Part shown: in pieces, positions 28,297 through 63,723 of the stretch
Layout of the letters: each line of letters opens with the position of its first letter
Numbering within the stretch: the first letter of the stretch is position 1
Source: Cyanobacteria bacterium P01_F01_bin.150
GTDB lineage: Bacteria; Cyanobacteriota; Cyanobacteriia; CAKZMO01
Direction of reading: 5' to 3'
Assembly: GCA_039189765.1 (NCBI GenBank)
Contig: JBCCYL010000001.1
Span: 96,001 to 160,000, forward strand
Length of the DNA stretch: 64,000 nt
Position numbers and translations under genes: made by a program
Notes under the pieces: model-generated
Databases searched by the model: none
What the model saw: only the letters and a program-made list of their open reading frames with translations
Told to the model about the DNA's origin: nothing

Positions 28297-29313
28297 ATGA
28301 CAACCGTTAGTTTTTCCATGTCCCGCACTATTTTGGTTGAGACTGAAGATCGGGACCCAACGGACGTTAGACGAAAAGCCAGCGAGGTGACATTTGAATT
28401 CAATCTAGACTCGCCCCCACCGCCAGAAGGAGTAAATATTACCATCACTAGTGATGCCATCCAGATTTTTAGTGCTTTCGTACTTGGCTTCACAGAAGCA
28501 GATATTCAAGTCGTGGGTGCGGATCGTCCCGTTCCTGATTTTGACTTTTCTGCATTTGATCTGAATATCACCAGTCAACGCGCCACCGTTACGCTTAGCC
28601 ATTTTGATGATGAAGATGACACGCCTGACCCAAGCAGCCCATTTCCTTCCTACGATGGATTTAGGGAAGTAACCTTTTTTGTGGAAGACGGAGATGATTA
28701 TGATGTTGATCCAGACAACGATGATGTTCTAGTTTGGTTTGCCGATGAGCGAAATCAGCTACCTCAAAATGCCCGTAATTCCAGGGTTATCGATGTTCCA
28801 AATTTTGTTGGCACTAGGGGCAGTGATACATTTTTAGGAACTAAAGACAACAATATTGTGAGAGGGAAAGGGGGTGACGACACTCTTTCCGGCATACGCG
28901 GAAAAGACACGATTGCTGGTGGTGGTGGGGATGACATCATTAATGGCGGCGGCGGTAGCGATCGCCTCAGAGGGGGCGGCGGCAACGATGAGATATCAGG
29001 GGGCGGCGGTAAAGACAACATAGCAGGCGGCGGCGGTGACGATACCCTTTTAGGAGGCGGTGGCAGCGATACAATTGTTGGTGGCGGTGGTAACGATATT
29101 TATGTTTTGGAACGAAAGTCAGGCCAGGATACGTTTAGAGGCTTTAGAGTCGGTCAAGATCAGTTGGGGTTGTCAAACAATTTAACGTTTGATGGGTTGA
29201 CTATCACTGCCCAGGGAAACAATACCCTGATTCGAGCTGGTAGCAACTCCCTGGCAATTCTACAAGGTATACAGCCAGATGCCTTGTCCGAAGCTGACTT
29301 TATAGTCGTTTAA
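28297..29313 (+). CDS. Small RTX (hemolysin-type Ca-binding) protein with one acidic beta-rich repeat domain
   Basis: Tandem GGxGxDxUx nonapeptides; C-terminus ..LAILQGIQPDALSEADFIVV typical of cyanobacterial T1SS substrates; N-terminal domain resembles the giant-protein repeat. Confidence 0.88.
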   Translation: MTTVSFSMSRTILVETEDRDPTDVRRKASEVTFEFNLDSPPPPEGVNITITSDAIQIFSAFVLGFTEADIQVVGADRPVPDFDFSAFDLNITSQRATVTLSHFDDEDDTPDPSSPFPSYDGFREVTFFVEDGDDYDVDPDNDDVLVWFADERNQLPQNARNSRVIDVPNFVGTRGSDTFLGTKDNNIVRGKGGDDTLSGIRGKDTIAGGGGDDIINGGGGSDRLRGGGGNDEISGGGGKDNIAGGGGDDTLLGGGGSDTIVGGGGNDIYVLERKSGQDTFRGFRVGQDQLGLSNNLTFDGLTITAQGNNTLIRAGSNSLAILQGIQPDALSEADFIVV

Positions 29314-29361
29314 TCTACTATTTGAATTCATTAGAAAACGATAGACGAGTACTCACCAGCT

Positions 29362-30759
29362 ATGCCAGAACTTAGTATTACAGCCGATCCTTTAATTCTT
29401 ATTGAAGATGAAGGAACCACAACAACCATTACCATCAGTTCCAATGAGCCGCTGCCAGAAGGCGGTCTGACTGTTTTAATTGAAACCGGTAAGCCATTTG
29501 CGCTGGGAGACTTTAATGCCTTTCAAGCTTCCTTTTCTGGGGGAGTTTTGATCAGAGGCTTATTAGATAATAGCGGCCTTGAGTTTCGCTTGACGAACCA
29601 AACGGCAACAATCACCCTTCCGGTATTTGACGATCCGGATCGAACAGCAGATGGAGCCGTAACCGATCCATCAGGTCCGTTAAGAAACGACGATCAGGGC
29701 GAAGAACAAACCACTATCTCCATTGGCTCAGGAGAGGGATACACGGTCAGTCCAACAGCAGGTAGCATCACTCTCACCTTTTTTGATACCGCTCCGCCTG
29801 CCTCCACGCCTACGCCCGCCCCTACGCCTACACCAGACCCCATATCTACGCCCGCCCCCACACCTACGCCAGACTCTACTCCAGAGCTTAGTATTAGTGC
29901 CGATATTCTTACCCTCTTGGAAAATGAGGGCACGGAAACGACGTTTACGATTACGTCTAGTGAGCCGCTACCAGAGGGTGGCTTAGTGATTTCGCTTGAA
30001 ACCAATAAGCTAGGTGCCCTAGATGACTTTGTTGGGTTTACCACATCTTCTCAGCTTTCAACCACTGGGGGGGCCGTAATAGAGGTTGCCCAGGATGGCA
30101 GCGACTTTACCTTCCGTCTAGATTCGCAAACGGCAACCATTCGCCTCCCCATTGATAATGATAACGATACGGGGAAAGAGCAGACCACTTTTTCTATTGC
30201 TACAGGAGACGGGTATACCGTTAGTCAAACCTCTGGAGCGGTTACCCTTACCCTTCTAGACATTAATCCACCCACAAATGGAGCCGATCGCATTCGAGGT
30301 TCAGACACTGCGGATACGATTAGTGGAAATGGCGGTAGAGATATTTTAATTGGCCTTGCTGGCGATGATACGATTACTGGCGGTGCTGGTAGAGACTCTG
30401 TAAGGGGCGGACGCGGCAAAGATTCTCTTTTTGGCAATGGCGGCAACGACAAAATATTTGGTGGTCAGGGGAACGACACCATGTTTGGAGGTGGCGGTAG
30501 CGATATTATTGTCGGAAATAGAGGTCGTGACACGTTTGTGTTGGAGCAAAAGTCAGGTCGTGACACCTTTAGAGACTTTACAGATAGTCAAGATCGGCTA
30601 GGTCTATCTGACGGTCTTGAATTTGATGATTTAAGCTTTATCGATCGAGGAAAGAATGTTCTGATTAGATCTGGTAATAATGCACTGGCTCTAGTGCGAG
30701 GCATCAATGCAGATCAGCTAACCGAGGCTGACTTTGTAGATGTTGAGAGTCCAATATAA
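29362..30759 (+). CDS. RTX protein with two acidic beta-rich repeat domains and a Pro/Thr linker
   Basis: Two repeats starting PELSI(T/S)AD..L(I/L)E(D/N)EGT; PTPAPTPTP linker; GGxGxD nonapeptides; C-terminus ..QLTEADFVD. Confidence 0.88.
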   Translation: MPELSITADPLILIEDEGTTTTITISSNEPLPEGGLTVLIETGKPFALGDFNAFQASFSGGVLIRGLLDNSGLEFRLTNQTATITLPVFDDPDRTADGAVTDPSGPLRNDDQGEEQTTISIGSGEGYTVSPTAGSITLTFFDTAPPASTPTPAPTPTPDPISTPAPTPTPDSTPELSISADILTLLENEGTETTFTITSSEPLPEGGLVISLETNKLGALDDFVGFTTSSQLSTTGGAVIEVAQDGSDFTFRLDSQTATIRLPIDNDNDTGKEQTTFSIATGDGYTVSQTSGAVTLTLLDINPPTNGADRIRGSDTADTISGNGGRDILIGLAGDDTITGGAGRDSVRGGRGKDSLFGNGGNDKIFGGQGNDTMFGGGGSDIIVGNRGRDTFVLEQKSGRDTFRDFTDSQDRLGLSDGLEFDDLSFIDRGKNVLIRSGNNALALVRGINADQLTEADFVDVESPI

Positions 30760-30830
30760 TACCCCATTGGTTATCCCAGCCAATATCGGTTCCCTGTCCC
30801 TGATGGGGAACTGTATGGTTGTCGAGTAAG

Positions 30831-31889
30831 TTACCGCTGGACTGAACCTACAGTTAAGCCAGAAGCCGCGATCGCCCTTTTGCAGTACTCAGGCCGCTGG
30901 TCCCCTGCAAATACCTGACGATTGAGTCGGTGAGCGACAGCCAGCATCTCAGCATTAGGGAGCCAGGGAAAAATAATGGCGTCATTCGGTTTGGAATAGA
31001 GCTTGATCGTCTGTTCCAACGATTGTCCCTGAAGCATCGCTTCTGGAAGGATTAAAACCGTTGTCGCCGCATCCACTAACCAGTCATGGTCCCAATCATC
31101 GGCAGTAGCAGCAAGGGCAAAGGCTGCGTCTGGAATCATATTGTAAAATTCGGGGGACGCGGTGTCACCGCAAAATATAAAGTGGCGATCGCCCAATAAG
31201 TACCAGCCAGATTGAATAGCTTTGATCTGAATCGATGGCTGAGGAACTGGGGTTACCTGAGAAGCTAGCGTAGTCTCTATCAGCACATTGCCAACGGCGG
31301 CTTCCGAAGCGTGTGGCTGCGGCTTTGTATCCTGCTGTTGAGTTTTCTTATGGGGTATGACCGCAACGATCTCCGGCTTAGCCGCTGCATGGCTAGATGT
31401 GGAGGTTTTGCTATCTTTTGATATAGGCTGATTTTTCTGAGCGTCTGTCTTCTTTACCTTCTTCTCGCGCAGGGCTTGCCTCAAGTCTTTGTGGGTCAGC
31501 TTTTTACCGGATTGGGCCTTTTCCAGATACTCCTGTCTAACCGTTGGGGGCGTTGAAGGAGCCGCTAACAGATATAGTGCCGACGTAGCAATGTCTAGTT
31601 CCTCTAGAGTAGCCTGTTCGCCAAAGCTCTCATATACATTAATAAAATTGTAAGCAGTGCGTCGACTCCAGCCAAATTCAGCTTTTAGCCAAACGTCAAA
31701 CTGACCATATTGCAAATGATCACGCACACTGGCTAACCGCTTGCCGATTTCCCAAATATCCTGAGCGGTGCGGCGTAATCGATCCTGAATTTCGCCCGTA
31801 TGCTGACGCACTAAAGCACGCTGTGTAGGCTCTAATACCTCATAGTTGAAGTGTGTCACAATGTCTTTGCCACTATTCGCGTTAGTCAC
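30831..31889 (-). CDS. DUF3102-like HTH protein fused to a degenerate DNA N4/N6-methyltransferase-like domain
   Basis: N-terminal IWEIGKRL..VRDHL.YGQFDVWLKAEFGWSRRTAYNFINVYE and SALYLLAAPSTP; C-terminal WYLLGDRHFIFCGDT...YSKPNDAIIFPW...LNRQVFAGDQRPEYC. GTG at 31889 is preceded by GGGAGG; the ORF track starts at 31901. Confidence 0.75.
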   Translation of the reverse strand: MTNANSGKDIVTHFNYEVLEPTQRALVRQHTGEIQDRLRRTAQDIWEIGKRLASVRDHLQYGQFDVWLKAEFGWSRRTAYNFINVYESFGEQATLEELDIATSALYLLAAPSTPPTVRQEYLEKAQSGKKLTHKDLRQALREKKVKKTDAQKNQPISKDSKTSTSSHAAAKPEIVAVIPHKKTQQQDTKPQPHASEAAVGNVLIETTLASQVTPVPQPSIQIKAIQSGWYLLGDRHFIFCGDTASPEFYNMIPDAAFALAATADDWDHDWLVDAATTVLILPEAMLQGQSLEQTIKLYSKPNDAIIFPWLPNAEMLAVAHRLNRQVFAGDQRPEYCKRAIAASGLTVGSVQR

Positions 31890-32048
31890 GGCCCCTCCCA
31901 ATGTCTTCCTAAATTAAGTTCTACAGATTTTCTTAACCTGACTTTGTAGGTCCCATTGTGTTCTATATATGCATGACTACTGTCCTAAGCGTGTCCAGTC
32001 CAGACATATGCTCAACATCTTCATAATCATCATACCCAAAATGAAGAG

Positions 32049-32262: not shown

Positions 32263-33027
32263 TTGTTATCTTTTGGCAACCATTTATGTGTGGTGAAACT
32301 TGAGTCTATGATCACCCAATCTTCTGTTACTGTTGGAGACTTATTGCTAGAGATTGATCACATTTTTATCTGTGTTGATGCTGAACCCGATCCAGGGGCC
32401 TTTGCACGACTTGGCCTTATATGTTCTGACCAAGTGGTTCGTCGTGAGCAACAGGGCATAGCATCACGCCTCGTTTTCTTTAACAACGTCTACCTTGAGT
32501 TTGTGTGGGTAGAGGATGCCGAACAGGCTGAGATTTATGCCATGCGTTCTGGAATTGACTACCTATCCCGTGCTCAGTGGAAAGTGTCCCAGTATTGTCC
32601 ATTAGGGGTTGCATTACGACACTGTAATGTGAACGACCCAGATCCAGACTTAAATGTTTTTAATCATACGTCAAATGTCGCTGATGGGGTAATCCGACTA
32701 GAAGCCAGTAACTTAGTTGCTCAGTGGGAGCCATTTTGCTACATAATTCCGTCGGCGATCGCCCTCACGACGCTTTTTGCACGCTCTCGTACCATGCAGG
32801 GGCAGCTTACTAATCACGCCTTAGGCATTCAGCGATTGACCCATGCTCACATGTCAATGGAGCATGAGGGACCCTTGACGCCGCCCATGTCCATGCTAGA
32901 GAAGGTTGGCATTGTTGAGTTAACTCAGAATCAGCAATTTGAGCTTATCTTGACCTTTGATCAGCATCGACAAGGACGGTGTCTAGATCTGGTATCTTTA
33001 GATATTCCGGTTATCTTGAGATACTAA
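32263..33027 (+). CDS. VOC/glyoxalase-like (Glyoxalase_3-type) protein
   Basis: EIDHIFICV, G.ASRLVFFNNVYLEFVW, NHALGIQRLT. True start probably the internal ATG (MITQSS). Confidence 0.75.
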   Translation: MLSFGNHLCVVKLESMITQSSVTVGDLLLEIDHIFICVDAEPDPGAFARLGLICSDQVVRREQQGIASRLVFFNNVYLEFVWVEDAEQAEIYAMRSGIDYLSRAQWKVSQYCPLGVALRHCNVNDPDPDLNVFNHTSNVADGVIRLEASNLVAQWEPFCYIIPSAIALTTLFARSRTMQGQLTNHALGIQRLTHAHMSMEHEGPLTPPMSMLEKVGIVELTQNQQFELILTFDQHRQGRCLDLVSLDIPVILRY

Positions 33028-33030
33028 AGC

Positions 33031-35043
33031 GTGGGGTTTCGTTTTCAGTCTAAACAGAATAATGGTGTTGTGGGTGGGTCGCGTCCACGGCACTCGCCTA
33101 AAGCCGATCCCAAAAGCATGGATAGGATCGGGTTAATACTGTGGCGATCGCTTCGGCCCTATTGGCTTGATACAGCACAACGATGGTCAGCCTGGGGCCT
33201 ACTGTTCTTGTTATTACTGTTATCCATCGGTAGCAGCGCTGCTTTAATTTGGGAAACGATTGAACGGGGCAATATTTTATCTGCCCTAGCGGCCCAAGAT
33301 GGGCAAAGATTTGCCAGCTCCATCATCATCTTTATTGGCTTGTTAATTGCGAGTGTTCTGCTTTTATCGTTCAAAACTTACGTGCAAGAACGTTTAGGGT
33401 TGAACTGGCGCAACTGGCTAACGCGACAAACCCTGAGCCAATATCTACAGCCCTATAAGTTCTATCAGCTTCAATATCCCATTGACAATCCTGATCAGCG
33501 TATTTCTGATGACCTTAAGACGGTCTGTCAGGATTCACTAATGTTTCTCACGATTCTGTTCGACTCAGTGGTCCAGCTTATTGGCTTTGGCAGTGTTTTA
33601 TGGCTAATTTCTAAGCCATTGATGGGAATTTTAGTCACCTATGCAATAGCTGGTACCGTTGTCACTACCCTGATATTTGGTAGAGTCCTACTGGGCATCA
33701 ACCGTCAGCGATTACAGCAGGAAGCTGATTTTCGCTATGGATTGATTCGAGTGAAAGAACAGGCAGAGGCGATCGCGTTTTATCAAGGTGCCTCAAACGA
33801 GTATGGTCAGGCTAAAATCCGTTTCCTAAATGCGTATCAAACAGTTCAGCGGCTCATTCGCTGGCAGTTTGGGCTAACCATTTTTCAAAATGGCTACCAG
33901 TACTTGACGTTTATTTTGCCGTTTATCATTCTAGCTCCTCAAATTTTTGCTGGGAACCAGGAAATCGGCACAGTGGTACAGTCCCAAGCCGCATTTGAGC
34001 GCATCGGCTTTGCCCTGGGCTTAGTCATCACCCAATTTGACAAGCTAAGTGCATTTGGAGCCGCAGTTAAGCGCTTAGATGGACTAAACAAAGGTTTAGA
34101 AAAGGCAGAAATAAAGGCAGAAATAAAGGCAGAAATAAAGGCAGAAGGCAGAAGGCAGAAGGCAGAAGAACCCACCCCTAGCCCCTCCCAGGAGGGGGAC
34201 CGGAGTAGCCCAACGCCCCAACGCCCAACGCCCAACGCTCAACTCTCCAACTCTCCAACTCTCCAACTTCCCAACTTCCCAACGCCCCAGCTCTCCAACG
34301 CCCCAACGCCTCAACGCCCTATCCAAAATCTAAAATCTAAAGTTATTTCCTTTCAAAATTTAACGTTGACGACGTCGGCTAAAACGCTGGTGCGTGATTT
34401 ATCCTTTGAGGTTGCGGAAGGGCGATCGCTTCTTATCACTGGAGCCAGTGGTGTGGGTAAAAGCTCATTGGTGAGGGCGATCGCAGGGTTATGGCAGTCA
34501 GGGGAAGGAGTGATCGGGGTTCCGCCCCGAGAGCAGCTCTTGTTTTTACCCCAGCGCCCCTATATGCCGTTGGGTGATTTGCGCTATCAGCTACATTATC
34601 CCCATCACCATGTTCAAAAACAGACTGAGACATTTGACATCCGGTTATCGAACAAGCAGCTATCTAACGAGCAAATATCTAACCAGCGATTAAAAGATAT
34701 TCTTGTTCAAGTTAATTTAGCCCATCTAACTGATTATTTAGGCAGTACAAATTCCGTATCTGCCCAAGAGTACGAGGATATGGACTGGTCACAAGTTCTT
34801 TCGCTTGGCGAACAACAACGTCTTGCCATTGCCCGTGTTGTCCTTAATCCTCCGGTCTATGCCATCCTCGATGAAGCCACCAGTGCCCTCGACGAAGCCA
34901 ACGAAGCCAACGTCTACCAGCTTCTGCAAACTCTCCCTACTACGCTTATCAGCATTGGTCATCGCCCCTCACTCACTGCTTATCACCAAACCCTCCTCAC
35001 CCTCAACCCAGACGCTACCTGGACCTTAAAATCTATCCCGTAG
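33031..35043 (+). CDS. ABC half-transporter (SbmA/BacA-like TMD + ATPase; YddA/ABCD-like)
   Basis: DNPDQRI, EADFRYGLIRVKEQAEAIAFY, Walker A GASGVGKS, signature LSLGEQQR, Walker B ILDEATSALD, GHR. Start may be the later ATG (MDRIG). Confidence 0.93.
   Translation: MGFRFQSKQNNGVVGGSRPRHSPKADPKSMDRIGLILWRSLRPYWLDTAQRWSAWGLLFLLLLLSIGSSAALIWETIERGNILSALAAQDGQRFASSIIIFIGLLIASVLLLSFKTYVQERLGLNWRNWLTRQTLSQYLQPYKFYQLQYPIDNPDQRISDDLKTVCQDSLMFLTILFDSVVQLIGFGSVLWLISKPLMGILVTYAIAGTVVTTLIFGRVLLGINRQRLQQEADFRYGLIRVKEQAEAIAFYQGASNEYGQAKIRFLNAYQTVQRLIRWQFGLTIFQNGYQYLTFILPFIILAPQIFAGNQEIGTVVQSQAAFERIGFALGLVITQFDKLSAFGAAVKRLDGLNKGLEKAEIKAEIKAEIKAEGRRQKAEEPTPSPSQEGDRSSPTPQRPTPNAQLSNSPTLQLPNFPTPQLSNAPTPQRPIQNLKSKVISFQNLTLTTSAKTLVRDLSFEVAEGRSLLITGASGVGKSSLVRAIAGLWQSGEGVIGVPPREQLLFLPQRPYMPLGDLRYQLHYPHHHVQKQTETFDIRLSNKQLSNEQISNQRLKDILVQVNLAHLTDYLGSTNSVSAQEYEDMDWSQVLSLGEQQRLAIARVVLNPPVYAILDEATSALDEANEANVYQLLQTLPTTLISIGHRPSLTAYHQTLLTLNPDATWTLKSIP
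34100..34340 (+). repeat. Composite heptamer/hairpin cassette (representative copy; about 10 full or partial copies in the window)
   Basis: (GCAGAAG)n - CCCACCCCTAGCCCCTCCCAGGAGGGGGAC - (CCCAACT/CCCAACG)n - (AAATCCA/AAATCTA)n. Confidence 0.9.
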
Positions 35044-35203
35044 ACAGAAGAACCCACCCCTAGCCCCTCCAAGGAGGGGGACCGGAGTAGCCCAACTCCC
35101 CAGTTTTTCCGCTCCCCAACTCCCCAACTCCCCAACTCCCCAACTCCCCAACTTCAAAATCCAAAATCCAAAATCCAAAATCCAAAATCGACCCAACCCT
35201 CCC

Positions 35204-37075
35204 ATGACTCATCCCCACCGCCAACCCTTCAAGCTTCAATTTCTTCAACGGCTATGGCAAGTGGCTCGGCCCTACTGGACCTCCTCCGAAAAATGGCGGG
35301 CATGGGGCTTACTTTTACTTTTGCTTTTACTATCTATTGTCAGTGCCGGGCTATTGGTTGTTGTTAGTATTTTTCTAGGGGATGTCACCTCTGCATTGGT
35401 GGCCCAGGATAGCGATCGCTTTTGGCAATCGGTTTTTATATTTATCGGTGTCATCCTAGTTGGCGTGCCACTTTTATCACTAAAAATCTTTGTTCAAGCC
35501 CAGCTCAGTTTGTATTGGCGTCGGTGGCTTACCCAAGAAATGCTACAGCGGTACTTTAGCAATCGCCAATTCTATAAACTCAGCCAGGTCAATCATCACT
35601 ACGATCGCACCTCTTCTGATATTGCGGCCAATATTGACAATCCTGATCAGCGCATTGCTGAAGACATTAATACATTTACAGAACAAGCCCTATTTTTTCT
35701 AATTGCTTTTCTGGACTCATGCCTCCAGCTTATGGCCTTTGTGGGTGTACTCTGGGCAATTTCTAAACCGTTAATGGCCTTTTTAGTCGCCTATGCAATG
35801 GGGGGAACGATGATTACAGGCCTTGTTTTTGGCCGTAAACTAATCTATCTCAATGTGGAGCAGCTAAAACGAGAGGCTAATTTTCGTTTTGGGCTGGTGC
35901 GAGTGCGTGAAAATACGGAGGCGATCGCCCTTTACGACGGTCAAGCCCAGGAGCTATCTATCCTCCAACAGCGATTCCAGTCGCTATTTGATAATTTTAA
36001 TCATCTAATCCGCTGGCAGCTGGGTCTCAACTTTTTTCAAAACGGCTACCAGTATCTAACGTTCCTTCTTCCTGCCCTAATTCTGTCTGGCCCCATCCTG
36101 AATGGCACGATGGAAGTGGGCGTACAGTCTCAAGCGGTGATTGCCTTCCGCAGCATTCTGATTGCCCTTGCGGTTATTATTCAACAGTTTGAGAAGCTAG
36201 CAGAATTTATGGCTAGGGGCGATCGCCTCCACGCGTTTCGGAACGCTATGCTCCCACCTCATCTGTCCTTCCCTATAAGTCCTTCGGACCGGCAGATAGG
36301 GGATCGGCAAACAGAGGACTCGGAGAAACTGGAGATTCGTCATAAGCCCAGCCGAACGGAGGTCATCCAAACGATTGAAGCTCCCTATATCGCCCTTGAC
36401 CATCTCACGCTTTACACGCCCGATCGCTCTACCGAACTGATTACCGATTTATCACTCACCGTGGAACCGGGGCAATCGTTGCTTGTTCAGGGTCCCAGTG
36501 GTGTGGGTAAAAGTTCATTACTGCGGGCGATTGCAGGGCTTTGGGAGACGGGATCAGGGACGATTAGAAGACCGCCTTTAGACCAAATCGTCTTTTTACC
36601 CCAGCGACCCTACATGGCATTGGGAACCCTGCGCCAACAGTTGATGTATCCTGTCACTCCATCTGCTTTAACTGGGGATGAATCTGTGGATGAAGAGCTG
36701 CTCCAGCATATTCTTGAGCAGGTGAACCTACCATTTCTAAAAAAGCAGTATGATGGATGGGACTCTATTGAGAACTGGTCGCAGATATTATCGGTGGGTG
36801 AGCAGCAACGGTTGGCGATCGCTCGTCTTCTCGTAACACGATCTTTACAAACTTCAATCCCAACCGACAATCAGACTAAGTCTCTGATATCACCAATAGT
36901 TACCAGCACCTATGCGATTTTAGATGAGGCCACCAGCGCCCTGGATCAAGACAATGAAGATCGACTCTATCAGACTCTATTTGAGCATTCCATTACATAT
37001 ATAAGCGTAGGACATCGGCCTAATTTACAGCGCTATCATCACCATATTTTGACGTTGGATAGGCAAGAACCCTAA
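35204..37075 (+). CDS. ABC half-transporter paralog (SbmA/BacA-like TMD + ATPase)
   Basis: DNPDQRI, EANFRFGLVRVRENTEAIALY, GPSGVGKS, LSVGEQQR, ILDEATSALD, GHR. Confidence 0.93.
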   Translation: MTHPHRQPFKLQFLQRLWQVARPYWTSSEKWRAWGLLLLLLLLSIVSAGLLVVVSIFLGDVTSALVAQDSDRFWQSVFIFIGVILVGVPLLSLKIFVQAQLSLYWRRWLTQEMLQRYFSNRQFYKLSQVNHHYDRTSSDIAANIDNPDQRIAEDINTFTEQALFFLIAFLDSCLQLMAFVGVLWAISKPLMAFLVAYAMGGTMITGLVFGRKLIYLNVEQLKREANFRFGLVRVRENTEAIALYDGQAQELSILQQRFQSLFDNFNHLIRWQLGLNFFQNGYQYLTFLLPALILSGPILNGTMEVGVQSQAVIAFRSILIALAVIIQQFEKLAEFMARGDRLHAFRNAMLPPHLSFPISPSDRQIGDRQTEDSEKLEIRHKPSRTEVIQTIEAPYIALDHLTLYTPDRSTELITDLSLTVEPGQSLLVQGPSGVGKSSLLRAIAGLWETGSGTIRRPPLDQIVFLPQRPYMALGTLRQQLMYPVTPSALTGDESVDEELLQHILEQVNLPFLKKQYDGWDSIENWSQILSVGEQQRLAIARLLVTRSLQTSIPTDNQTKSLISPIVTSTYAILDEATSALDQDNEDRLYQTLFEHSITYISVGHRPNLQRYHHHILTLDRQEP

Positions 37076-48551: not shown

Positions 48552-48577
48552 TTGTGAAAAATTTGCACAAATGATAC
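48552..48577. promoter_or_regulatory. Palindromic operator candidate, copy 2
   Basis: TTGTGAAAAATTTGCACAA followed by ATGATAC, upstream of giant gene 2. Confidence 0.5.
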
Positions 48578-55976: not shown

Positions 55977-56639
55977 ATGATTGTTGAAATTCCTAATGTT
56001 TTTTCTCAAAATGAAGTAAAAGATATTGTTGATAAACTTTCTGCCTCAGAATTTATTGATGGAAAGAAAACGGCGGGTTGGAATGCTCGGGCTGTTAAGA
56101 ATAATGAGCAGCTCAAAGCCAGTGATCCTGCTGCTGCTGCTCTCAAGGAGATGGTGAAAACGAAGCTCAACAAAAACTTTCGTTTTCAGTCAACGGTTCG
56201 CCCAAAGAATATCCATACTCTGCTGTTTAGTCGGTACGAAGTCGGCATGTCCTATGGGCGACATAATGACAATGCAATGATGTCGGGGAAATGGCGAACT
56301 GATGTTTCCTTCACCATCTGGCTAACTGCCCCTGAAACCTACAAGGGAGGAGACTTAGTTATTGAAGGCCCAAGTCGTGAATCATCCTATCGTTTAGCCG
56401 CAGGGTCAGCCATTACCTATCCATCCTCAACTCTCCACCGTGTTGATCCAATTACTGAGGGAAGTCGATGGGCGATCGTAGGCTGGGTCCAGAGTTGGAT
56501 AAGAGACCCGGCCCATCGCGAAATTCTATATGATTTGGATACAGCTCGTCGCTCCATTTTTGATACCCATGGCAAAAATAAAGAATTTGATTTGGTGTCT
56601 AAGAGCTTAACTAATCTACTGCGTAGCTGGATGGAGTAA
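55977..56639 (+). CDS. piuC: PKHD-type Fe(II)/2-oxoglutarate dioxygenase (PiuC/YbiX family)
   Basis: FIDGKKTAG..A..VKNNEQ, FSRY..GMSYGRHND (HxD), RTDVSFT, Y.GGDL, YPSSTLHRV.P(I)T.GSR, WVQSWIRD..RE.LYDLD, NLLR.W.E. Confidence 0.9.
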   Translation: MIVEIPNVFSQNEVKDIVDKLSASEFIDGKKTAGWNARAVKNNEQLKASDPAAAALKEMVKTKLNKNFRFQSTVRPKNIHTLLFSRYEVGMSYGRHNDNAMMSGKWRTDVSFTIWLTAPETYKGGDLVIEGPSRESSYRLAAGSAITYPSSTLHRVDPITEGSRWAIVGWVQSWIRDPAHREILYDLDTARRSIFDTHGKNKEFDLVSKSLTNLLRSWME

Positions 56640-56702: not shown

Positions 56703-56721
56703 AATATGGCCGTAAGCACTG

Positions 56722-56745
56722 ATGCAAAATTTGCACAAGTGATAC
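56722..56745. promoter_or_regulatory. Palindromic operator candidate, copy 3
   Basis: ATGCAAAATTTGCACAA followed by GTGATAC, upstream of giant gene 3. Confidence 0.5.
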
Positions 56746-56992: not shown

Positions 56993-57013
56993 TATTGCAA
57001 TATAGTCTCAATA
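56993..57013. promoter_or_regulatory. Fur-box-like site upstream of giant protein 3
   Basis: TATTGCAATATAGTCTCAATA: palindromic TATTG/CAATA flanks around a TGCAAT..TCTCA core. Confidence 0.55.
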
Positions 57014-57490
57014 ATTTTGTCTTTAAACAGGTTTAACTATTCTGGTCATAAGCTTTCTTCTGTTGTAAGCTAAACTGAATTGCTTTTTGATTGTGCAACG
57101 CCAGAATTCAGTAATGAGAGACGAGTTCAGACGATAAAAAGAGGGTTTGAGGGTTCTCAAGTATGACGGGACAAAGATGTAAATAGTTAGTGGCCTTTAT
57201 AGTCATTTGCTGTTTTAATTTTGTCTTAATTTTATATTGCTATTGCCAGTAGCCTATCCAACGGTTTTCTAACTTAATTGATCCTTTTGGCTTTCGAGTC
57301 ATGCGGAGGGATCCTGTTGTGGCTGGTGCTGCATTTGTGGCGGTGTGATAGCAAGTATGTCGTTAGTCGTGGAACAGCATTCAACGTTGAGGAAGAGTAT
57401 TCTTTCTCAATTTGTTTAATGCAATGTTCTATTTGTGATGCTCTACCCTATCTTGTGGCCAGCTAGACAATATCGGAGATAGTCCAAACT

Positions 57491-60400
57491 ATGGTACAAG
57501 TCAATTTAGCGACTTCAACGAACTTTAGCGGTGATGCTAATGCCGTTATTGAGGATCAAGGCAATGAGCTAACGTTTGAATTTAGCCTAGATGAGGCAGC
57601 CCCTGCAGGAGGCTTAAAGGTTTATGTTGATAGCAATGTTCCGGAGATCTTAAATCGATTTAATCTACTAGCGTTAGCCTTTGACCCTTCTAGGTTTTCC
57701 AATCTAACAACCAACCAGGAGTCGTTCACCGATTTCTCCAACAGTGGTTTCTCGGTGACCATTAACGCTGGTGCAACGGAAGCCTCAGTCACTATTCCGA
57801 TTTTTGACACTGATGAGTCAATCCCCGATCCGTTCTTCCCAGAGACCTATGATGGATTGACAACGACAACGTTTACCCTCAAGACGCGAGATCAAATTGA
57901 CTCTGCCGATGAGACAAGCCCCAGGGGGAGCACAGGAAATGATTTGGACTCCGTAGAAGGTGATGGTGTCCAGATTAGCGACTACACCATTGGTACCGCT
58001 TCAAGTACCGTTCTGATTGCAGATACGGTCAGTCAGTTACCTGGGCCTGTACCAACCGATGGCTATGACGAAGCTGTTAGTGGAGACATTTCAAACGATC
58101 CCAGCAGCCCTCTTAGCTTGCCTTTAGCTGAAGGGACGACAAGTCTGTCGGCAACCACAGGTAACGCAGACCAGGAGTATGTAACCGTCACGGTTCCAGA
58201 TGGCTTTGAACTTGAATCGTTAGTGCTTGAGTCTTACTCCCCATCCGATGTTTCCTTTATTGGCGTGCAAGAAGGCACAACCTTTACCGAGCCACTGGAC
58301 AACAGCGCAACGCTTAGCGAATTTTTAGGCTACACCCTATTTGGCATTAGTGCTATTGGCACTGACATTCTAGACAATATTGGCAACGGCTCCAATGGTG
58401 CAAACTTTGGTGGGCAGGGATTTGAAGGGCCACTACCTTCCGGTGACTATACGTTTGCCATACAGCAGCTTGGTGGTCCTAGCGATTACGAATTAAGCTT
58501 CAATATTGCTGCTGTTGATGACGGCGATGGCGGCGGCGATGGCGGCGATGGCGGCGGCGATGGCGGCGATGGCGGCGGTGGTGACGGCGGCGGTAACGAT
58601 GGGCCTCCCGTAGTTAGCTTTGAAGTGGTGCCAAACACCTTCTCAGAAGAGTCCGCAAACAATTTAGTCGAATGGAAGTGGACCGTTACCGGTGAGTTCC
58701 CCGAAGATGGCCTCATCGTCAACCTCGATACCTCTGGAGGAGATGAACCCTTTGCCTTTACTGGACAATTTGCCGCTCAACCCGAACCCGAATTTATCAA
58801 CGCAGACATCGTTGATTTTGACTTTAGCGGCAGACTCAATATTCAGCTATCCGAGCCTGAAGCATCATTTAAGCTCTACTTTATTGACGACATCATTGAA
58901 GAAGGCACCCAAACCTTTGAATTCCGACTTGTAGATGGCGAAGGCTACACCGTAGACTCAGCCCTCAACGGCAGTGTCTTTACCATTACTGATGATAATG
59001 GGGGTCCCGGTTTCGGTCCCACCGTTGGTCTGTCCGTGTCCGAGACGGACTTGGCCGAAGGCGACCCTCTAACCGTTACCTTTACGACTGAAGGTGATAT
59101 TCCTGATGACGGGGTACAGGTCCTGGTTCAAAGTGATGTATTTGGTGCTCTGGGGCAATTTGAGCTAGCCGACCTAAACAACATCACCACCACTGGCATT
59201 GCAGGCTTGCCTGAAGTCGGTGACGGGGGCGGCAGTAGTTTCTTGGTCACCATCACCGACCCCATCGCAACAATTGATCTAAGCGTCTTTGATGACATCT
59301 TGTCGGAAGACCCTCTCGATATCGCATTCACTCTGGCCAATGGTGAAGAATATGAGGTAGACCCTGACGCTGCCGGTGTGACCCTAACCATTTCCGATGA
59401 AGTTCAGCCTGCCGGACCGACGGTTGGGCTGAGCGTTGATAAAACCACCGTAGTAGAAGGTGAGGCATTGACCCTCACTATTGCCGTGGACGGAGAGATT
59501 CCTCCAGAGGGATTACAGGTTCTGATTAATGATGTGGACAGCGTGCAAAATCAAGTCAGAAGTCTGACTGAGTTTGATATTGCCAGCGTGCAAACGGAAG
59601 GGATTGATGGGTTCCCCATCCCTGCAGAGGGCGACAGCGGGTTCTTTGTAACAGTCACTGAACCTACGGCTACGATTACGCTAAATGCATTTGATGAGGG
59701 TGCGGACGAAGACGAAGCGGCTGAATCATTTACCTTTGCGGTGATTGATGGAGAAGCCTATGAGGTAGACCCAGATGCCAGCGGTGTCACGGTCAACATT
59801 GTTGACGTAGCTGACGCTTCAGAGACGCCCGTCGTCACTCTCACCGTAACGCCGCTTGCTAGTGAAGATGACAATCAAACCATAACTCTTACTTTCAATG
59901 TTGAAGGGGAAATCCCAACAGATGGGCTACCCATTACAATTGAGGGTGACTTTCTAACCCTGTTTGATCCACAACTTCGCCTGCTTAATCAAAATATTCC
60001 TTTGGCAATTGAACCAGCGACCGGTCTTGTCCCCATCGCCAATCGAGGCAGCGAATTTGATATTGCGCTTACAGCGCCGGAAGTAACCGTTTCTGTTGTC
60101 CTCTTTGATGACATCCTTGAAGAAGAAGCTCTGGAACTAAGTTTCGCGGTATCAGAAGGAGATGGCTATATTGTTGGTGGAGATGGCCCAGCAACCGTTA
60201 CCATTGTGGACGGTGATAGTGTGACTCCTGGCAGCGGTCCAACTGTTAGCCTCTCGGTCACCAACACTAGTGTGGCAGAAGGTGATGAGCTTACAGTTAA
60301 CTTTGATGTGGATGGTGCCATCCCGGATAGCGGTCTTACTGTTTTTGTAGATGGTCCTCCTGCGGCAATCGGCGAATTCGCAATCTTTGATGAGAACAAC

Positions 60401-63376
60401 AATCCATTGGTTACGACTGATGGCGTTGCTGGTTTTCCAGTACCAGATAACGACGCAGGTGGTTTCTTTGTAACCCTTGTGGAAGAGCAAGCTTCGCTGA
60501 CTCTCTCAGTCTTTGAAGATGGCCCTGGCGAAGGTGAGGAAAGCCTGACTTTTGACTTAATTGATGGTGAAGCATACGAAGTATTAGAATCGGCATCATC
60601 CGTTGATCTCACCATTACGAACGACACCCCCGAAGGCACAGCAATCGTCGGCGTAACGTTAGACCCCGCAGTGGTTTCTGAAGAGGGTGATGCACCTGCA
60701 TTTACGGCAACCTTTACTGTTACTAATGCTGAGATTCCTCCAGTCGAATTGGATGCCGATGGCAACTATGTCTCTGGCGGACTATCGGTGTTCGTGAATG
60801 GTGGTCTTGATATCATCAATATTTTTGATGATGCGACTGGGCTTCAAATCCTTGATGGCATTGCCCTGGGCTCTTTCTTTGATCCTGAACAGCCCGGCCT
60901 TGTGGAGTTTATTCTGCTAGAGCCTACTTCTACCGCGACCCTCAATATCCTTAATGACGTGATTGAAGAGGGCAATGAGGACTTTACATTCTCCCTCGTC
61001 AATGACGATGCGGGTGTGCTGGGTTCCTCCTACGCCGTTAGTCCAGACGCTGCTAGCATTACCGTCACGATCGCGGATGATAACGGTGGTCCAGGGGTTG
61101 GACCCACTGTTGGCATCACCGTAACTGACACTGAGTTGGTTGAAGGCGAAGAATTTACGCTCAACTTTACCCTTGAGGGGGATGATGTACCATCTGCGGA
61201 TAACCCTTTAACCGTTTTGGTTGATAGCCCAACCTTTGCCGCTTTGGGTGAGTTTTTGTTGTTCGATGAAAATGGGACTCCCCTCTTTAGCACTACTGGT
61301 ATTGATGGTGTTCCCGTTGTGGGTGATACCGGAGCGAGCAGCTTCTTGGTTGACCTAATTGACTCGACTGCCAGCATCACGCTTTCTGTTTTCGATGATG
61401 GCCCAGATGAAGGACTGGAGACGCTCACATTTGATGTGGTGAACGGAGAGGAGTACGAAGTATCTGAAACTAACAGTTCTGTTACCGTTAACATAAACGA
61501 TGCTGAATCAACTCTGCCAGTTGTTTCCTTCGTTACGACAACTCCGGTGGTAACTGAAGATGAGCAACCAGTAGCAGAATTTGTATTCACTATCGACGGT
61601 GACATTCCTGACGATGACCAAGGGTTGGTCGTTACCGTTGGTGGTGACGGGATTGAAAAGCTGTTTGCGCCTCGCTTCCTTGATGGCAGTGTTCCCTTGG
61701 CGTTTGATCCAGCAGATGGCGTCATTCCGATTGGCTTTACGGGAACAGAAGTGATCCTCGGGTTTACCGCATCAGAGGTTACCTCCGCAGCAACCATTTT
61801 CAATGACATTGTCGAAGAAGAATCCGATGTCTTAACCTTCGAGATCTTGCCAGCAGACGGTTACACCATTGGTCAAGGAACGGCTAGCGTTACCGTTGAG
61901 GATGGCCCTAGTGCGACCCCTGGAGAGGGTCCAACCGTAAGCCTGTCTGTAAGCGATTCGGACTTGTTCGAAGGAGATGAATTCACCGTTAACATTACCG
62001 TGGATGAGACGACTGGAGCCATCCCAGAAGGTGGTCTGGAACTCTTTATTGATGGTGGACCCACTGATTTAGGAGAGTTCAACATCTTTGGTGAAAACGG
62101 AATCGACCCTGACACTGATTTAGTTGGGTTAGCTGGATTCCCAGAACAGGGTGATGATCTTGGTGGCTTCTTCGTGACTGTAGTAGAACCCCAAGCCTCT
62201 ATTACCTTATCAGTGTTTGAAGATGGCCCCACCGAAGGTCAAGAGCTGCTTACCTTTGAACTAGCCAATGGTGAACTCTATGAAGTGGCGGCGGATGCCG
62301 GTAGCGTGGACTTGACGATCAATGATGGCGGTGAGGATGCAGTCTTTGCGGCTAAGTCAGGCGTTACTAGCGTATTCCTTGACTTCGCTCTGTTGGAGGA
62401 CGTCGCAGGCCTAACTCTCGTCAGTGCGGATAGTGATGCCGTCCCAGCGACTCGCCCCTCCTTTCTAGATCCGTTCCAAGTTGGATTTGCCATCACTGAT
62501 GACACCGACTTTACCTTTGCCCCTGCGCCGTTTACGCCCCTGGGTGGCACCATTGAGCACTCTGGCACCATTACCCTGGGATTGGGTGGCGCTGAAGCAA
62601 CCATCGGTGAGTTTTCCATTGGCTTTGATCCGGCGCGGGCGTCCGATACCGCCAGCGGTTTCTTTGTCGCTGATACATTGGATGACGCTTTGGGTCTAGA
62701 GGTGCTGTTTGATATCAGCGCCCCTGGAACAGTTATTACCTCTGGTGGCAACCTGGAAATTAGTGCCGCCGATCTGCTGCTTGCGCCAGAATTGGCTGGG
62801 GCATTGGGACTGGATGATTTGGCTGGAGCCGATGTGGGTGATGCCCAAATTGATGCAGTTGTTGCACTTACTGATGCCCCAGCGCCTAGCGCTAGCCTTG
62901 ACTTCGAGGGGGATGCCCTAGAGGTTGGGGATGTGGTGACTGACCAGTTTGATGGCTTGACCATTGCGGTTGAAGGCGAGTTGGAGGCGATGATCTTTGA
63001 TACGGCTAATCCAACCGGAGGCGATTACGACCTTCGCAGTGATGATCTGGGTCAAGTGTTGATTATCTCTGAAGACGGTGACTCTGCTGATCCGGATGAC
63101 AACATCAGAGGCGGGACCTTGATGTTTAATTGGGATGGCGGAGTTAGTCTTGAGAGCATTGGTCTGCTTGATATTGAAGAGTCAGGCGGTGTCGTCACGA
63201 TCTACGGTGAAGATGATATGACCGTGTTGGCCACTGTTGATATTCCTGGATTGGAAAACAATAGTTACCAGAGCCTCAGCATCGGAACTGATGCTGTCGG
63301 CAAGATTGATGTATCGCTAGTGGGCAGTGGTGCCATCACGGAAATTATCCTTGGCGATACCGAAGCTGCATCATAG
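57491..63376 (+). CDS. Giant acidic repeat protein 3 (1961 aa): beta-rich repeats, possible HtaA-like domain, shared C-terminal domain
   Basis: GGAG upstream; first ~340 aa closely parallel giant protein 1; Gly/Asp tract at ~58519-58600; same MIFDTANPTGGDYDL C-terminal domain. Confidence 0.9.
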   Translation: MVQVNLATSTNFSGDANAVIEDQGNELTFEFSLDEAAPAGGLKVYVDSNVPEILNRFNLLALAFDPSRFSNLTTNQESFTDFSNSGFSVTINAGATEASVTIPIFDTDESIPDPFFPETYDGLTTTTFTLKTRDQIDSADETSPRGSTGNDLDSVEGDGVQISDYTIGTASSTVLIADTVSQLPGPVPTDGYDEAVSGDISNDPSSPLSLPLAEGTTSLSATTGNADQEYVTVTVPDGFELESLVLESYSPSDVSFIGVQEGTTFTEPLDNSATLSEFLGYTLFGISAIGTDILDNIGNGSNGANFGGQGFEGPLPSGDYTFAIQQLGGPSDYELSFNIAAVDDGDGGGDGGDGGGDGGDGGGGDGGGNDGPPVVSFEVVPNTFSEESANNLVEWKWTVTGEFPEDGLIVNLDTSGGDEPFAFTGQFAAQPEPEFINADIVDFDFSGRLNIQLSEPEASFKLYFIDDIIEEGTQTFEFRLVDGEGYTVDSALNGSVFTITDDNGGPGFGPTVGLSVSETDLAEGDPLTVTFTTEGDIPDDGVQVLVQSDVFGALGQFELADLNNITTTGIAGLPEVGDGGGSSFLVTITDPIATIDLSVFDDILSEDPLDIAFTLANGEEYEVDPDAAGVTLTISDEVQPAGPTVGLSVDKTTVVEGEALTLTIAVDGEIPPEGLQVLINDVDSVQNQVRSLTEFDIASVQTEGIDGFPIPAEGDSGFFVTVTEPTATITLNAFDEGADEDEAAESFTFAVIDGEAYEVDPDASGVTVNIVDVADASETPVVTLTVTPLASEDDNQTITLTFNVEGEIPTDGLPITIEGDFLTLFDPQLRLLNQNIPLAIEPATGLVPIANRGSEFDIALTAPEVTVSVVLFDDILEEEALELSFAVSEGDGYIVGGDGPATVTIVDGDSVTPGSGPTVSLSVTNTSVAEGDELTVNFDVDGAIPDSGLTVFVDGPPAAIGEFAIFDENNNPLVTTDGVAGFPVPDNDAGGFFVTLVEEQASLTLSVFEDGPGEGEESLTFDLIDGEAYEVLESASSVDLTITNDTPEGTAIVGVTLDPAVVSEEGDAPAFTATFTVTNAEIPPVELDADGNYVSGGLSVFVNGGLDIINIFDDATGLQILDGIALGSFFDPEQPGLVEFILLEPTSTATLNILNDVIEEGNEDFTFSLVNDDAGVLGSSYAVSPDAASITVTIADDNGGPGVGPTVGITVTDTELVEGEEFTLNFTLEGDDVPSADNPLTVLVDSPTFAALGEFLLFDENGTPLFSTTGIDGVPVVGDTGASSFLVDLIDSTASITLSVFDDGPDEGLETLTFDVVNGEEYEVSETNSSVTVNINDAESTLPVVSFVTTTPVVTEDEQPVAEFVFTIDGDIPDDDQGLVVTVGGDGIEKLFAPRFLDGSVPLAFDPADGVIPIGFTGTEVILGFTASEVTSAATIFNDIVEEESDVLTFEILPADGYTIGQGTASVTVEDGPSATPGEGPTVSLSVSDSDLFEGDEFTVNITVDETTGAIPEGGLELFIDGGPTDLGEFNIFGENGIDPDTDLVGLAGFPEQGDDLGGFFVTVVEPQASITLSVFEDGPTEGQELLTFELANGELYEVAADAGSVDLTINDGGEDAVFAAKSGVTSVFLDFALLEDVAGLTLVSADSDAVPATRPSFLDPFQVGFAITDDTDFTFAPAPFTPLGGTIEHSGTITLGLGGAEATIGEFSIGFDPARASDTASGFFVADTLDDALGLEVLFDISAPGTVITSGGNLEISAADLLLAPELAGALGLDDLAGADVGDAQIDAVVALTDAPAPSASLDFEGDALEVGDVVTDQFDGLTIAVEGELEAMIFDTANPTGGDYDLRSDDLGQVLIISEDGDSADPDDNIRGGTLMFNWDGGVSLESIGLLDIEESGGVVTIYGEDDMTVLATVDIPGLENNSYQSLSIGTDAVGKIDVSLVGSGAITEIILGDTEAAS

Positions 63377-63510
63377 GATCCTAGACCTTGTTCAAGCTTT
63401 CTAGGAAGATTAGAATGTCAGGATGAAGAGCATTTTAGGGTCTTCTAGCCCCTTTCCTAATATTCTCTTTACCTCTTGTAAGTTTGACGACTGAGTCAGG
63501 AAGATTTCAA

Positions 63511-63546
63511 CGGGATACTGCGGTCTTTGCTACAGTATCCCGCTTT
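63511..63546 (+). terminator. Hairpin after giant gene 3
   Basis: CGGGATACTG-(12 nt)-CAGTATCCCG followed by CTTT. Confidence 0.55.
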
Positions 63547-63560
63547 AAAGTAAAAACCTT

Positions 63561-63723
63561 ATGAATCAACCATTTGTTAGTTTGAGTGCAAAGCCAGATT
63601 CAGCTTTAGAAGGCGATCGCACCACAGTTACCCTAACGTTTAGCCTAAATATTATTCCTCCAGAGTCGAGTCTAACCCTCTAAGGTAGACAGCCCAGACT
63701 TGGGGGAATTTGACGTTTATTGA
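63561..63723 (+). pseudogene. Frameshifted remnant of a beta-rich repeat domain of the giant-protein family
   Basis: ATG 63561 gives MNQPFVSLSAKPDSALEGDRTTVTLTFSLNIIPPESSLTL*. Skipping one base continues KVDSPDLGEFDV, matching the family pattern VSLS..EG..T.TF.L...P..GLT..VDS...LGEFDV. Confidence 0.6.

Follow-up and report, generated by a model that had tools for sequence, protein, structure and literature searches.

Giant repeat adhesins of the repeats-in-toxin (RTX)/type I class, such as LapA, MpIBP, SiiE and FrhA, are long tandem chains of beta-sandwich extenders that have their cargo domains close to the C-terminus. Substrates of type I secretion lack a signal peptide, are acidic and poor in cysteine, and carry an RTX block. 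The HasA hemophore also has a C-terminal secretion signal and is encoded beside HasR, the TonB-dependent receptor with which it serves haem uptake. In Trichodesmium, the haemolysin-type calcium-binding (HTCaB) genes Tery_0419/0424/2055/2710 respond to iron and dust contact, and excerpts of the two sources propose that their products act at the cell surface in the use of particulate iron (PMC5776111, PMC12090762). An RTX protein resembling SwmA increased with particles in Trichodesmium colonies and was interpreted as a movement protein in the excerpt available from that source (PMC9723768). No published account tying repeat or RTX proteins to cyanobacterial siderophore clusters was found in the literature. 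Here, we describe an array of genes for acidic repeat proteins, two of them small and three giant (giants 1 to 3), in a 64,000-nucleotide stretch (the window) of Cyanobacteria bacterium P01_F01_bin.150 (assembly GCA_039189765.1, contig JBCCYL010000001.1, positions 96,001 to 160,000), where the array follows genes of siderophore type.

The window contains the gene set of a siderophore island together: a TIGR01783 receptor, an MFS_3/EntS-like gene of the major facilitator superfamily (MFS), whose family makes it a probable siderophore exporter, and polyketide synthase (PKS) genes headed by a fatty acyl-AMP ligase (FAAL). With giant 3 as query, a search that covered one genome for each species, and that reaches close relatives only, yielded 13 related loci (L001 to L013). 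Another one, L014, was added by a tblastn search of plasmids and lies on plasmid pGLO7428.01 of Gloeocapsa sp. PCC 7428 (NC_019746.1; 29% identity). The repeat genes follow FAAL-PKS, in some cases ExbBD-TonB, a TonB-dependent receptor and MFS genes in 10 of the 14 loci. The carriers of these linked loci (Calothrix, Rivularia, Plectonema, Phormidesmis, Lyngbya, the Gloeocapsa plasmid and metagenome-assembled genomes [MAGs]) belong to several cyanobacterial orders. Linkage of the repeat genes to TonB-dependent uptake genes next to FAAL-PKS is conserved in them. On these grounds we tentatively read the array as a secreted, iron-related accessory module of a lipopeptide-siderophore island, with a confidence that falls just short of even.

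The gene order is preserved to different extents. A receptor and/or MFS gene stands directly upstream of the repeat genes in nine loci (L001, L002, L004 to L008, L013 and L014), and in eight loci MFS orthologues directly precede them. The order FAAL (minus strand), receptor, MFS and repeat genes was found in L002, L005, L006 (Calothrix parasitica NIES-267), L008 (Plectonema cf. radiosum), L013 and L014, each of which has a FAAL orthologue in the same position. ExbD-ExbB (minus strand) plus TonB (plus strand) are inserted in L002, L007 and L013. The available sequence of L001 and of the Phormidesmis locus L004 begins inside or just before the receptor-MFS pair, and L003, from a Lyngbya MAG, displays a fragmented receptor, a pair of ATP-binding cassette (ABC) genes and transposases. 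The Gloeocapsa island (L014/L015, NC_019746.1 137000-204466) would show the gene content that lies beyond the left edge of the window: its receptor is 51% identical to the window receptor and its ABC transporter 47% identical to the window ABC gene at 35204-37075. Its synthesis side comprises three PKS genes, two nonribosomal peptide synthetase (NRPS) genes and a tyrosinase; a flavin (LLM) oxidoreductase, a receptor fragment, a sucrase-ferredoxin gene and a 2-oxoglutarate (2OG) oxygenase are further members. A tyrosinase in company with PKS and NRPS recalls anachelin chemistry, as outlined in an excerpt of one source (PMC6562677), and the island looks like a cluster for an acylated, anachelin-like catecholate siderophore. 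The features of the window are collected in Table 1.

Table 1. Positions of genes, domains and motifs in the window (position 1 is its first nucleotide)
Feature	Position	Strand	Evidence or remark
Type I PKS genes (KS-AT...; two KS-DH-cMT-ER-KR-ACP modules)	2..23915	-	Pfam
FAAL-acyl-CoA dehydrogenase-ACP gene heading the PKS genes	19593-23915	-	Pfam; divergent from receptor gene
TonB-dependent siderophore receptor	24341..26749	+	Pfam Plug and barrel; TIGR01783 318.6 bits, cut-off 223.5
MFS transporter, MFS_3/EntS-like	26762..28081	+	
Palindrome GTGCAAAnTTTGCAC, exact	28124..28138		Ahead of first repeat gene
Small family member 1 (338 aa): 1 repeat, RTX nonapeptide block, C-terminal tail	28297..29313	+	HemolysinCabind 4.6e-17
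Small family member 2 (465 aa): 2 repeats with Pro/Thr linker between, RTX block	29362..30759	+	HemolysinCabind 1.4e-26
DUF3102 gene	30831..31901	-	Opposite to array
254-aa open reading frame	32263..33027	+	Ends 4 nt before first ABC gene
Two fused permease-ATPase ABC genes, ABC_membrane_2/SbmA-BacA kind	33031-35043 and 35204-37075	+	
Giant 1: 15 repeats, 4 PPC stretches, spondin-like domain, C-terminal jelly-roll domain	37724..48334	+	
Palindrome GTGCAAAnTTTGCAC, 1 mismatch	48554..48568		Ahead of repeat gene
Giant 2 (2155 aa): 8 repeats, three (GEGAEG)n arrays, two PRK06193 domains, C-terminal jelly-roll domain	49221..55688	+	
PiuC/YbiX-type Fe(II)/2-oxoglutarate dioxygenase	55977..56639	+	NF003974 291 bits, cut-off 143
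Palindrome GTGCAAAnTTTGCAC, 1 mismatch	56722..56736		Ahead of repeat gene
FurA-box-like site ATTGCAATATAGTCTCAATAAT	56995..57016 (palindrome 56995-57011)		475-496 nt upstream of giant 3; 15/19 vs Anabaena FurA consensus
Giant 3 (1961 aa): 10 repeats, N-terminal PPC-like domain, unassigned domain, C-terminal jelly-roll domain	57491..63376	+	
C-terminal jelly-roll domain of the giants	47858-48331, 55206-55685, 62900-63373	+	Alignment, model
Remnant: first half of one repeat, interrupted by stop and frame shift	63561..63723	+	
Start of next array member	63752..64000	+	Runs off window end

The five open reading frames (ORFs) of the array lie on the plus strand (338, 465, 3569, 2155 and 1961 aa) and sum to 25,479 nt. 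A hidden Markov model iterated from one repeat detected 36 copies, split 1/2/15/8/10 over the ORFs, with domain E-values of 1e-22 to 1e-42 and lengths of 105 to 160 aa. Thus, the original prediction was right in naming five genes and one remnant of a common repeat over about 25 kb, and its consensus was reproduced by the 36-copy alignment, which reads PTVxxS..L.E....T..F.V.G.IP.GGL.V......L..F...SGF...TE..ASITL.VFDD...EG.E..TF.L..G..Y.V. In the remnant, 40 codons (63561-63683) run into a stop, and the next frame (63679-63723) continues with ...VDSPDLGEFDVY. The longest ORF of giant 1 (37625-48334) yields its 3569 aa from a GTG; an alternative ATG lies at 37724 and is the likely true start. Because the N-terminus from this ATG resembles that of the gene at 57491, the 33-residue GTG extension is probably untranslated. 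Asp and Glu together make up 15 to 21% of the five proteins and Lys and Arg 1.1 to 7.4%, and no hydrophobic N-terminal stretch was found in any of them, in agreement with the predicted lack of signal peptides and shortage of basic residues. The claimed absence of Cys held for four of the five; the fifth has a single Cys, inside the doubtful extension of the 37625 ORF. As for the surroundings, the neighboring FAAL-primed PKS was borne out by Pfam, and a PiuC-like dioxygenase indeed stands between the repeat genes; the receptor and the MFS gene, which were also said to be interleaved, lie just upstream of 28297..63723.

Pfam, NCBIfam and PDB sequence searches with the repeat gave no significant match. 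The Pfam Calx-beta model (PF03160) reached an E-value of 1 or less in just 3 of the 36 repeats (best, 0.0035), and its best whole-protein score of 25.9 bits lay under the gathering cut-off of 27. We compared the repeat by hhalign with bona fide Calx-beta domains, 61 of which were cut from P0257, P0262 and P0266 (Pfam Calx-beta 2.6e-150, 1.6e-134 and 2.3e-138). This resulted in a match of 93.3% (E 2.8e-7) over 86 columns with the ...DD...E..E.F.L motif aligned, while the C-terminal domain of the giants, used as a negative control, gave 0.5%. Because this match came with a clean control, the repeat was placed as a remote Calx-beta relative despite the PF03160 miss; by its profile, it appears to diverge within the Calx-beta superfamily far enough to escape the Pfam model. 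The plain Calx-beta domain considered in the original prediction was accordingly not found, and what stands is the distant relationship. It is the second half of the repeat profile that true Calx-beta proteins hit; the first half shows its own motif (G.IP.GGL.V.VD...L.EF) plus inserts that vary in length and reach about 40 residues. An AlphaFold2 model of one repeat, computed from the 36-row alignment, is a beta sandwich (pLDDT 94.7, pTM 0.86). Its best Foldseek matches in the PDB were weak and fell on type II cohesins (1qzn, 3ghp and others; E about 1e-3, TM 0.34-0.54, root mean square deviation 6-10 Å). A cohesin identity was set aside on account of this weakness; no cohesin or dockerin Pfam match was obtained in any of the proteins.

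An exhaustive profile search retrieved 2,233 representative proteins (clusters) with the repeat at E≤1e-3 and 248 at E≤1e-30, and all named sources among the 120 best listed relatives are cyanobacteria. The repeat would thus constitute a new family, an uncatalogued cyanobacterial Calx-beta-like extender of more than 2,000 clusters. Partner domains in the relatives include PPC, Big_9/cadherin-like, DUF4347 and DUF4114 domains, often with a C-terminal RTX block, and some relatives also carry a serine hydrolase (PF00144), an amidase (PF01425) or a histidine phosphatase. The acidic motif VFDD...E..E is conserved in the repeat alignment, and the chain probably binds calcium to form a stiff, strongly anionic stalk. 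Such proteins might simply be general RTX-type surface adhesins or sheath proteins that act in aggregation, biofilm formation or gliding, induced by low iron but not capturing it directly. We consider this possible but doubtful. It would account for the beta-sandwich extenders, the RTX ends and the acidic, Cys-free composition, all of which match RTX adhesins, as well as for the adhesin-like Big_9/cadherin, DUF4347 and PPC partners, for the movement role assigned to the SwmA-like protein of Trichodesmium and for a repeat family far larger than the set of siderophore islands. It accounts less well for an order behind receptor and MFS genes that distant cyanobacteria retain although their repeat proteins have diverged to 29% identity, for Fur-like sites owned by single repeat genes (see below) and for hydrolase cargo, which is atypical of pure adhesins.

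The two kinds of array member differ in their C-terminal ends. RTX nonapeptide blocks close both small members, and none was detected in the three giants by Pfam at E≤0.001. The giants instead end in a common domain of 158 residues with pairwise identities of 61 to 72% (residues 3412-3569 of giant 1 in its GTG form and 1802-1960 of giant 3). It has no Pfam or NCBIfam model, and the ESM Atlas gave unnamed clusters only (best, 0.88). The predicted structure (pLDDT 88.3) resembles the jelly rolls of carbohydrate-binding modules (CBM) CBM32, CBM6, CBM4 and CBM61 (TM 0.41-0.56). A likeness to a lysophospholipase (PDB 8a24, E 7.9e-6) disappeared with a clean domain alignment and was ascribed to GDSL parts of full-length rows. 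In a profile search, the domain was recovered in 199 proteins of 278 to 2000 aa at E≤1e-3; roughly twenty of the matches carry one common MAG label. In cyanobacteria, it forms the extreme C-terminus of enzymes that include haloperoxidases, glycerophosphodiesterases, 5'-nucleotidases, PhoA-, PhoD- and PhoX-type phosphatases, and hydrolases of the GDSL and alpha/beta kinds. The domain also caps Rhodobacteraceae exoenzymes without signal peptide or Cys. It lies within 15 residues of the C-terminus in 73 proteins, only 4 of which have a signal-peptide-like N-terminus by a crude hydrophobicity rule; most of the 73 contain 0 to 2 Cys and begin with the mature enzyme from the first residues. In other phyla, the homologue is internal and tandem, in Cys-rich proteins that bear signal peptides.

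The repeat proteins share the traits of type I substrates: no N-terminal signal peptide, an acidic composition and few or no Cys. Since the giants' domain caps exoenzymes without signal peptides elsewhere, export probably takes a C-terminal route and not that of an N-terminal signal peptide. Our inference for these cyanobacteria is that the export signal resides in the domain or goes along with it; the domain may also tether the protein to envelope or sheath glycans and may represent an uncatalogued export or anchor module. The extracellular nature that had been predicted for the array finds support in proteins that look exported, being Cys-free and acidic and ending in an RTX or exoenzyme-type module. 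The domain is absent from all 14 related loci, where the repeat proteins end in RTX or PPC; therefore, the genome of the window appears to have swapped the C-terminal module. Proteins with a C-terminal signal beside a TonB-dependent receptor follow the logic of HasA and HasR, and the genes for the small members (338 and 465 aa) come immediately after those for the receptor and the MFS transporter. A hemophore-like shuttle, in which the secreted proteins bind metal or ferri-siderophore and pass it to the adjacent receptor, nevertheless strikes us as very improbable, given that the proteins have no similarity to hemophores and are mostly giant.

The domains displayed by the repeats vary between array members. 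The spondin-like domain of giant 1 (NF038123, 8.9e-44) occupies residues 3178-3392 of the GTG form. In giant 2, two histidine-phosphatase-like PRK06193 domains (residues 586-760 and 1797-1986) are accompanied by three (GEGAEG)n linkers, which are encoded by 18-bp tandem repeats. In giant 3, the N-terminal PPC-like domain (about residues 185-345) is an ESM Atlas lead only (0.91), and a domain without family assignment spans about residues 1608-1800. Residues 1-35 of the ORF that starts at 63752 are the same as the start of P0024, a protein of 1336 aa that combines a PF00144 serine hydrolase with three repeats and the C-terminal domain; the array therefore runs beyond the window. The modular architecture with changing cargo that the original prediction described was in this way supported (PPC, spondin-like and histidine-phosphatase-like domains, and a serine hydrolase in the next gene). 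The 18-bp arrays of giant 2 (49641-49918, 51510-51968 and 52433-52621) have 11 to 25.5 copies with 88 to 97% matches, and near-identical internal duplications are present as well (a two-repeat block three times and the phosphatase-like domain twice). Changes in length, or collapse during assembly, are likely to concentrate in this gene.

These hydrolase domains raise the possibility that the proteins are carriers of exoenzymes, with the repeats as inert spacers and the displayed hydrolases remodeling or cleaving an acylated siderophore or scavenging phosphorus or other nutrients. Besides the two PRK06193 domains and the serine-hydrolase member after the remnant, the Gloeocapsa island encodes a free-standing serine hydrolase between its MFS and repeat genes, relatives carry PF00144 and PF01425, and the C-terminal domain of the giants caps many phosphatases. 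Enzymatic removal of siderophore acyl tails is moreover an established idea, according to excerpts of two sources (10.64898/2026.07.24.740629, PMC13592322). We regard such a carrier function as unlikely, since no enzyme domain is recognizable in giants 1 and 3 or in either small member, and 10 to 15 repeats are much for a spacer. The cyanochelin acylase CcsQ was rejected as a counterpart: the excerpts characterize it as an Ntn hydrolase and thus as a member of another family, with no relation to the serine hydrolase of the array.

Two palindromes surfaced by k-mer counting in 23 upstream regions. The first, TTGAGA-N5-TCTCAA (≤2 mismatches), occurs 25 times in the 45.7 kb of intergenic DNA from the window and the 14 loci, compared to 2.7 expected in shuffles (maximum, 7 in 100) and to 17 occurrences in 295 kb of coding DNA. 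It was found within 700 nt upstream of 15 of 40 repeat genes versus 4 of 54 other genes. The motif includes the core of the Anabaena FurA consensus AAATAAATTCTCAATAAAT, as given in an excerpt of its source (PMC4005646), and the FAAL/receptor promoter of L006 matches this consensus at 17 of 19 positions. The ATTGCAATATAGTCTCAATAAT site of the window is within 2 mismatches of the palindrome. Judging by these motifs, the repeat array in the relatives probably belongs to a Fur regulon. The second palindrome, GTGCAAAnTTTGCAC, was observed three times in the window at ≤2 mismatches, with 0.37 expected and 0 of 100 shuffles reaching three. Exact copies hold the same position in L005 (7215), L006 (8174) and L008 (6906/12300/21012). 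In its extended form, (TT)GTGCAAAnTTTGCAC(AA), each copy follows a stop codon and precedes a repeat-protein gene. The palindrome does not have the form of a canonical terminator and may be the operator of a regulator.

The arrangement could in principle reflect linkage without function, with repeat genes and siderophore island traveling together and their order kept by descent or co-transfer alone. The Gloeocapsa copy is plasmid borne, transposases and Uma2 or DUF3102 genes are scattered through the loci, and the loci were selected as orthologues; L010 and L011 have repeat genes without iron genes. We nevertheless rate co-travel as quite unlikely in view of an order that was kept even though the receptors are 51% and the repeat proteins just 29% identical, of Fur-like sites before both receptor and repeat genes, and of the second palindrome, found ahead of repeat genes both in the window and in loci of Nostocales type.

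How the array could serve the island can be outlined as follows. Each protein would be a chain of divergent Calx-beta-type modules that becomes a stiff polyanionic stalk when calcium is bound. The stalks would carry domains for binding (PPC and spondin-like) and domains of hydrolase type (histidine-phosphatase-like ones and, in the next gene, a serine hydrolase). Export of the small members would proceed via RTX repeats and tail and that of the giants via the CBM-like jelly-roll end, which may also anchor them to envelope or sheath glycans. In the island, FAAL-PKS(-NRPS) synthesis, MFS export and import through the TonB-dependent receptor would be assisted by the array as an accessory. Its most likely job would be extracellular, namely, to keep iron colloids or particles, or an amphiphilic ferri-siderophore, at the cell surface near the receptor, and the displayed hydrolases may process the ferri-siderophore. 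What was observed is the basis of this proposal, namely, the repeat family and its composition, the layout of domains, the conserved order of genes and the operator-like motifs; secretion, calcium binding, iron regulation and every step of the function were derived from it.

A number of observations weigh against an iron-related accessory role. The count of linked loci covers 14 loci out of a family of 2,233 clusters, and these loci, having been picked by their likeness to giant 3, are orthologous islands and not independent cases. The upstream sequence of L010 and L011 lacks iron genes; none is available upstream in L009 and L012, and DevBCA-like and sucrase-ferredoxin genes lie downstream in L012. 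PiuC was not found beside the repeat genes in L001 to L013, and relatives of the ABC pair were seen in no loci other than L003 and L014. Regulation in the window itself is thinly marked. Of the Fur-like boxes named in the original prediction, one site (56995-57011, upstream of giant 3) is the single FurA-like palindrome, and a half-site lies near 24086 in the receptor promoter. Matches to the FurA consensus were not enriched in the window (14 observed versus 14.4 in shuffles), and a scan with the E. coli-type Fur-box consensus gave at most 14/19 in intergenic DNA, which was unconvincing. The enrichment of TTGAGA-N5-TCTCAA is partly circular because the upstream regions that brought out the motif also served for its count. 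No HlyB, HlyD or TolC genes were found in the window, where the ABC genes are of the ABC_membrane_2/SbmA-like kind. No solved Calx-beta structure was among the 50 best Foldseek rows, which held cohesins, pilins and CBMs. Finally, the phosphatases joined to the C-terminal domain, like the phosphatase-like domains carried by giant 2, would suit phosphorus scavenging equally. The iron-specific scaffold that had been proposed is therefore supported in part: the conserved linkage and the Fur-like palindromes before the repeat genes of relatives speak for it, and the C-terminal domain, a general exoprotein module, speaks against it.

In its strongest form, the proposal would be a Fur-controlled, calcium-stiffened, polyanionic scaffold, tethered to the sheath by a lectin-like end, that gathers iron colloids, mineral particles or the lipid-tailed ferri-siderophore beside the receptor, bears iron-releasing hydrolases and is the dedicated secreted protein partner of an amphiphilic PKS-NRPS siderophore. 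We judge this complete version improbable. If true, it would constitute two-tier iron harvesting by protein plus small molecule, which has not been described in any bacterium; as a by-product, there would be a new non-RTX C-terminal export or anchor domain of cyanobacterial and roseobacter exoenzymes without signal peptide. How cyanobacteria gain access to colloidal and particulate iron, and how they avoid the loss of diffusible siderophores, are open questions of aquatic biogeochemistry. The question of an iron function is directly testable because the loci point to particular genes that can be deleted, that lie in physical linkage with a siderophore system and that carry Fur-like sites, and culturable counterparts exist in Calothrix parasitica NIES-267, Gloeocapsa sp. 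PCC 7428 and Plectonema cf. radiosum LEGE 06105. The C-terminal jelly roll, which seems to replace signal peptides, matters for secretome prediction in cyanobacteria and for secretion engineering.

The remaining genes of the window (a DUF3102 gene, the 254-aa ORF and the two ABC genes, along with the PiuC/YbiX-type dioxygenase) are interleaved with the repeat genes. The ABC pair (33031..37075) is, by its domain type, a candidate inner-membrane transporter of the island. A 16-bp tandem repeat (34209-34319; 7.1 copies, 78% matches) lies inside the first ABC gene, and its period, not being a multiple of three, is odd for an open frame. The sole family signal of the 254-aa ORF was a weak match to Glyoxalase_3 under the cut-off (E 0.0012), and no AMIN domain was detected by Pfam in residues 1-147 of the receptor. 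The DUF3102 gene, for which no counterpart was found in the related loci, is probably an unrelated insertion. Genes on the opposite strand occur at comparable spots between MFS and repeat genes, namely, DUF3102 in the window (30831-31901) and a Uma2-family endonuclease in the Gloeocapsa locus L014 (12109-12684). Islands of this type collect insertions, to which L003 adds transposase fragments.

Compared with described systems, the repeat proteins belong to a known class, because they are in kind giant RTX/type I-style repeat exoproteins. The statement in the original prediction that no characterized system has this architecture was for this reason too strong, all the more so with a repeat that is remotely Calx-beta and with the iron- and dust-responsive RTX-domain genes of Trichodesmium, as far as the excerpt of their source describes them (PMC5776111). 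The array shares with LapA, MpIBP, SiiE and FrhA the missing signal peptide, the acidic character and the scarcity of Cys, and RTX nonapeptides are likewise present in the small members of the window and in most relatives. It differs from them in that the giants have no RTX block but a CBM-like jelly-roll end, in that the extender is a distinct Calx-beta-like family, and in that the window has no cognate genes for an ABC transporter, membrane fusion protein and outer membrane protein; an HlyD plus C39-ABC pair does adjoin the repeat genes in the Gloeocapsa island. The repeat resembles Calx-beta (PF03160) in its profile match, its beta-sandwich model and the DD...E..E motif but differs in Pfam score, first-half motif and inserts. 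HasA and HasR offer an analogy in the C-terminally signaled candidates beside a TonB-dependent receptor; HasA, however, is small, binds haem and has another fold. Cellulosomal scaffoldins share the idea of a repeat scaffold that displays enzymes, but no dockerin-like partners were seen for the window repeats, whose cargo is fused and not docked. The cyanochelin transport cassette was discarded as a parallel, having a different make-up (substrate-binding protein plus FecCD-type) and, in the excerpt of its source, no mention of RTX or giant proteins (10.64898/2026.07.30.741596). A repeat relative from Crocosphaera 51142, cce_3033, appears in a single mention, in an excerpt, as upregulated under ammonium limitation with iron-acquisition genes; this was too thin and was left unused. 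The HTCaB genes, likened by description only, resemble the array as iron-responsive genes for cyanobacterial RTX-domain exoproteins, although the excerpts describe them with CHRD domains, unlike the window family. What is new here, set beside all of these systems, is the extender family, the non-RTX C-terminal module and the conserved embedding of the repeat genes in a siderophore island with Fur-like sites.

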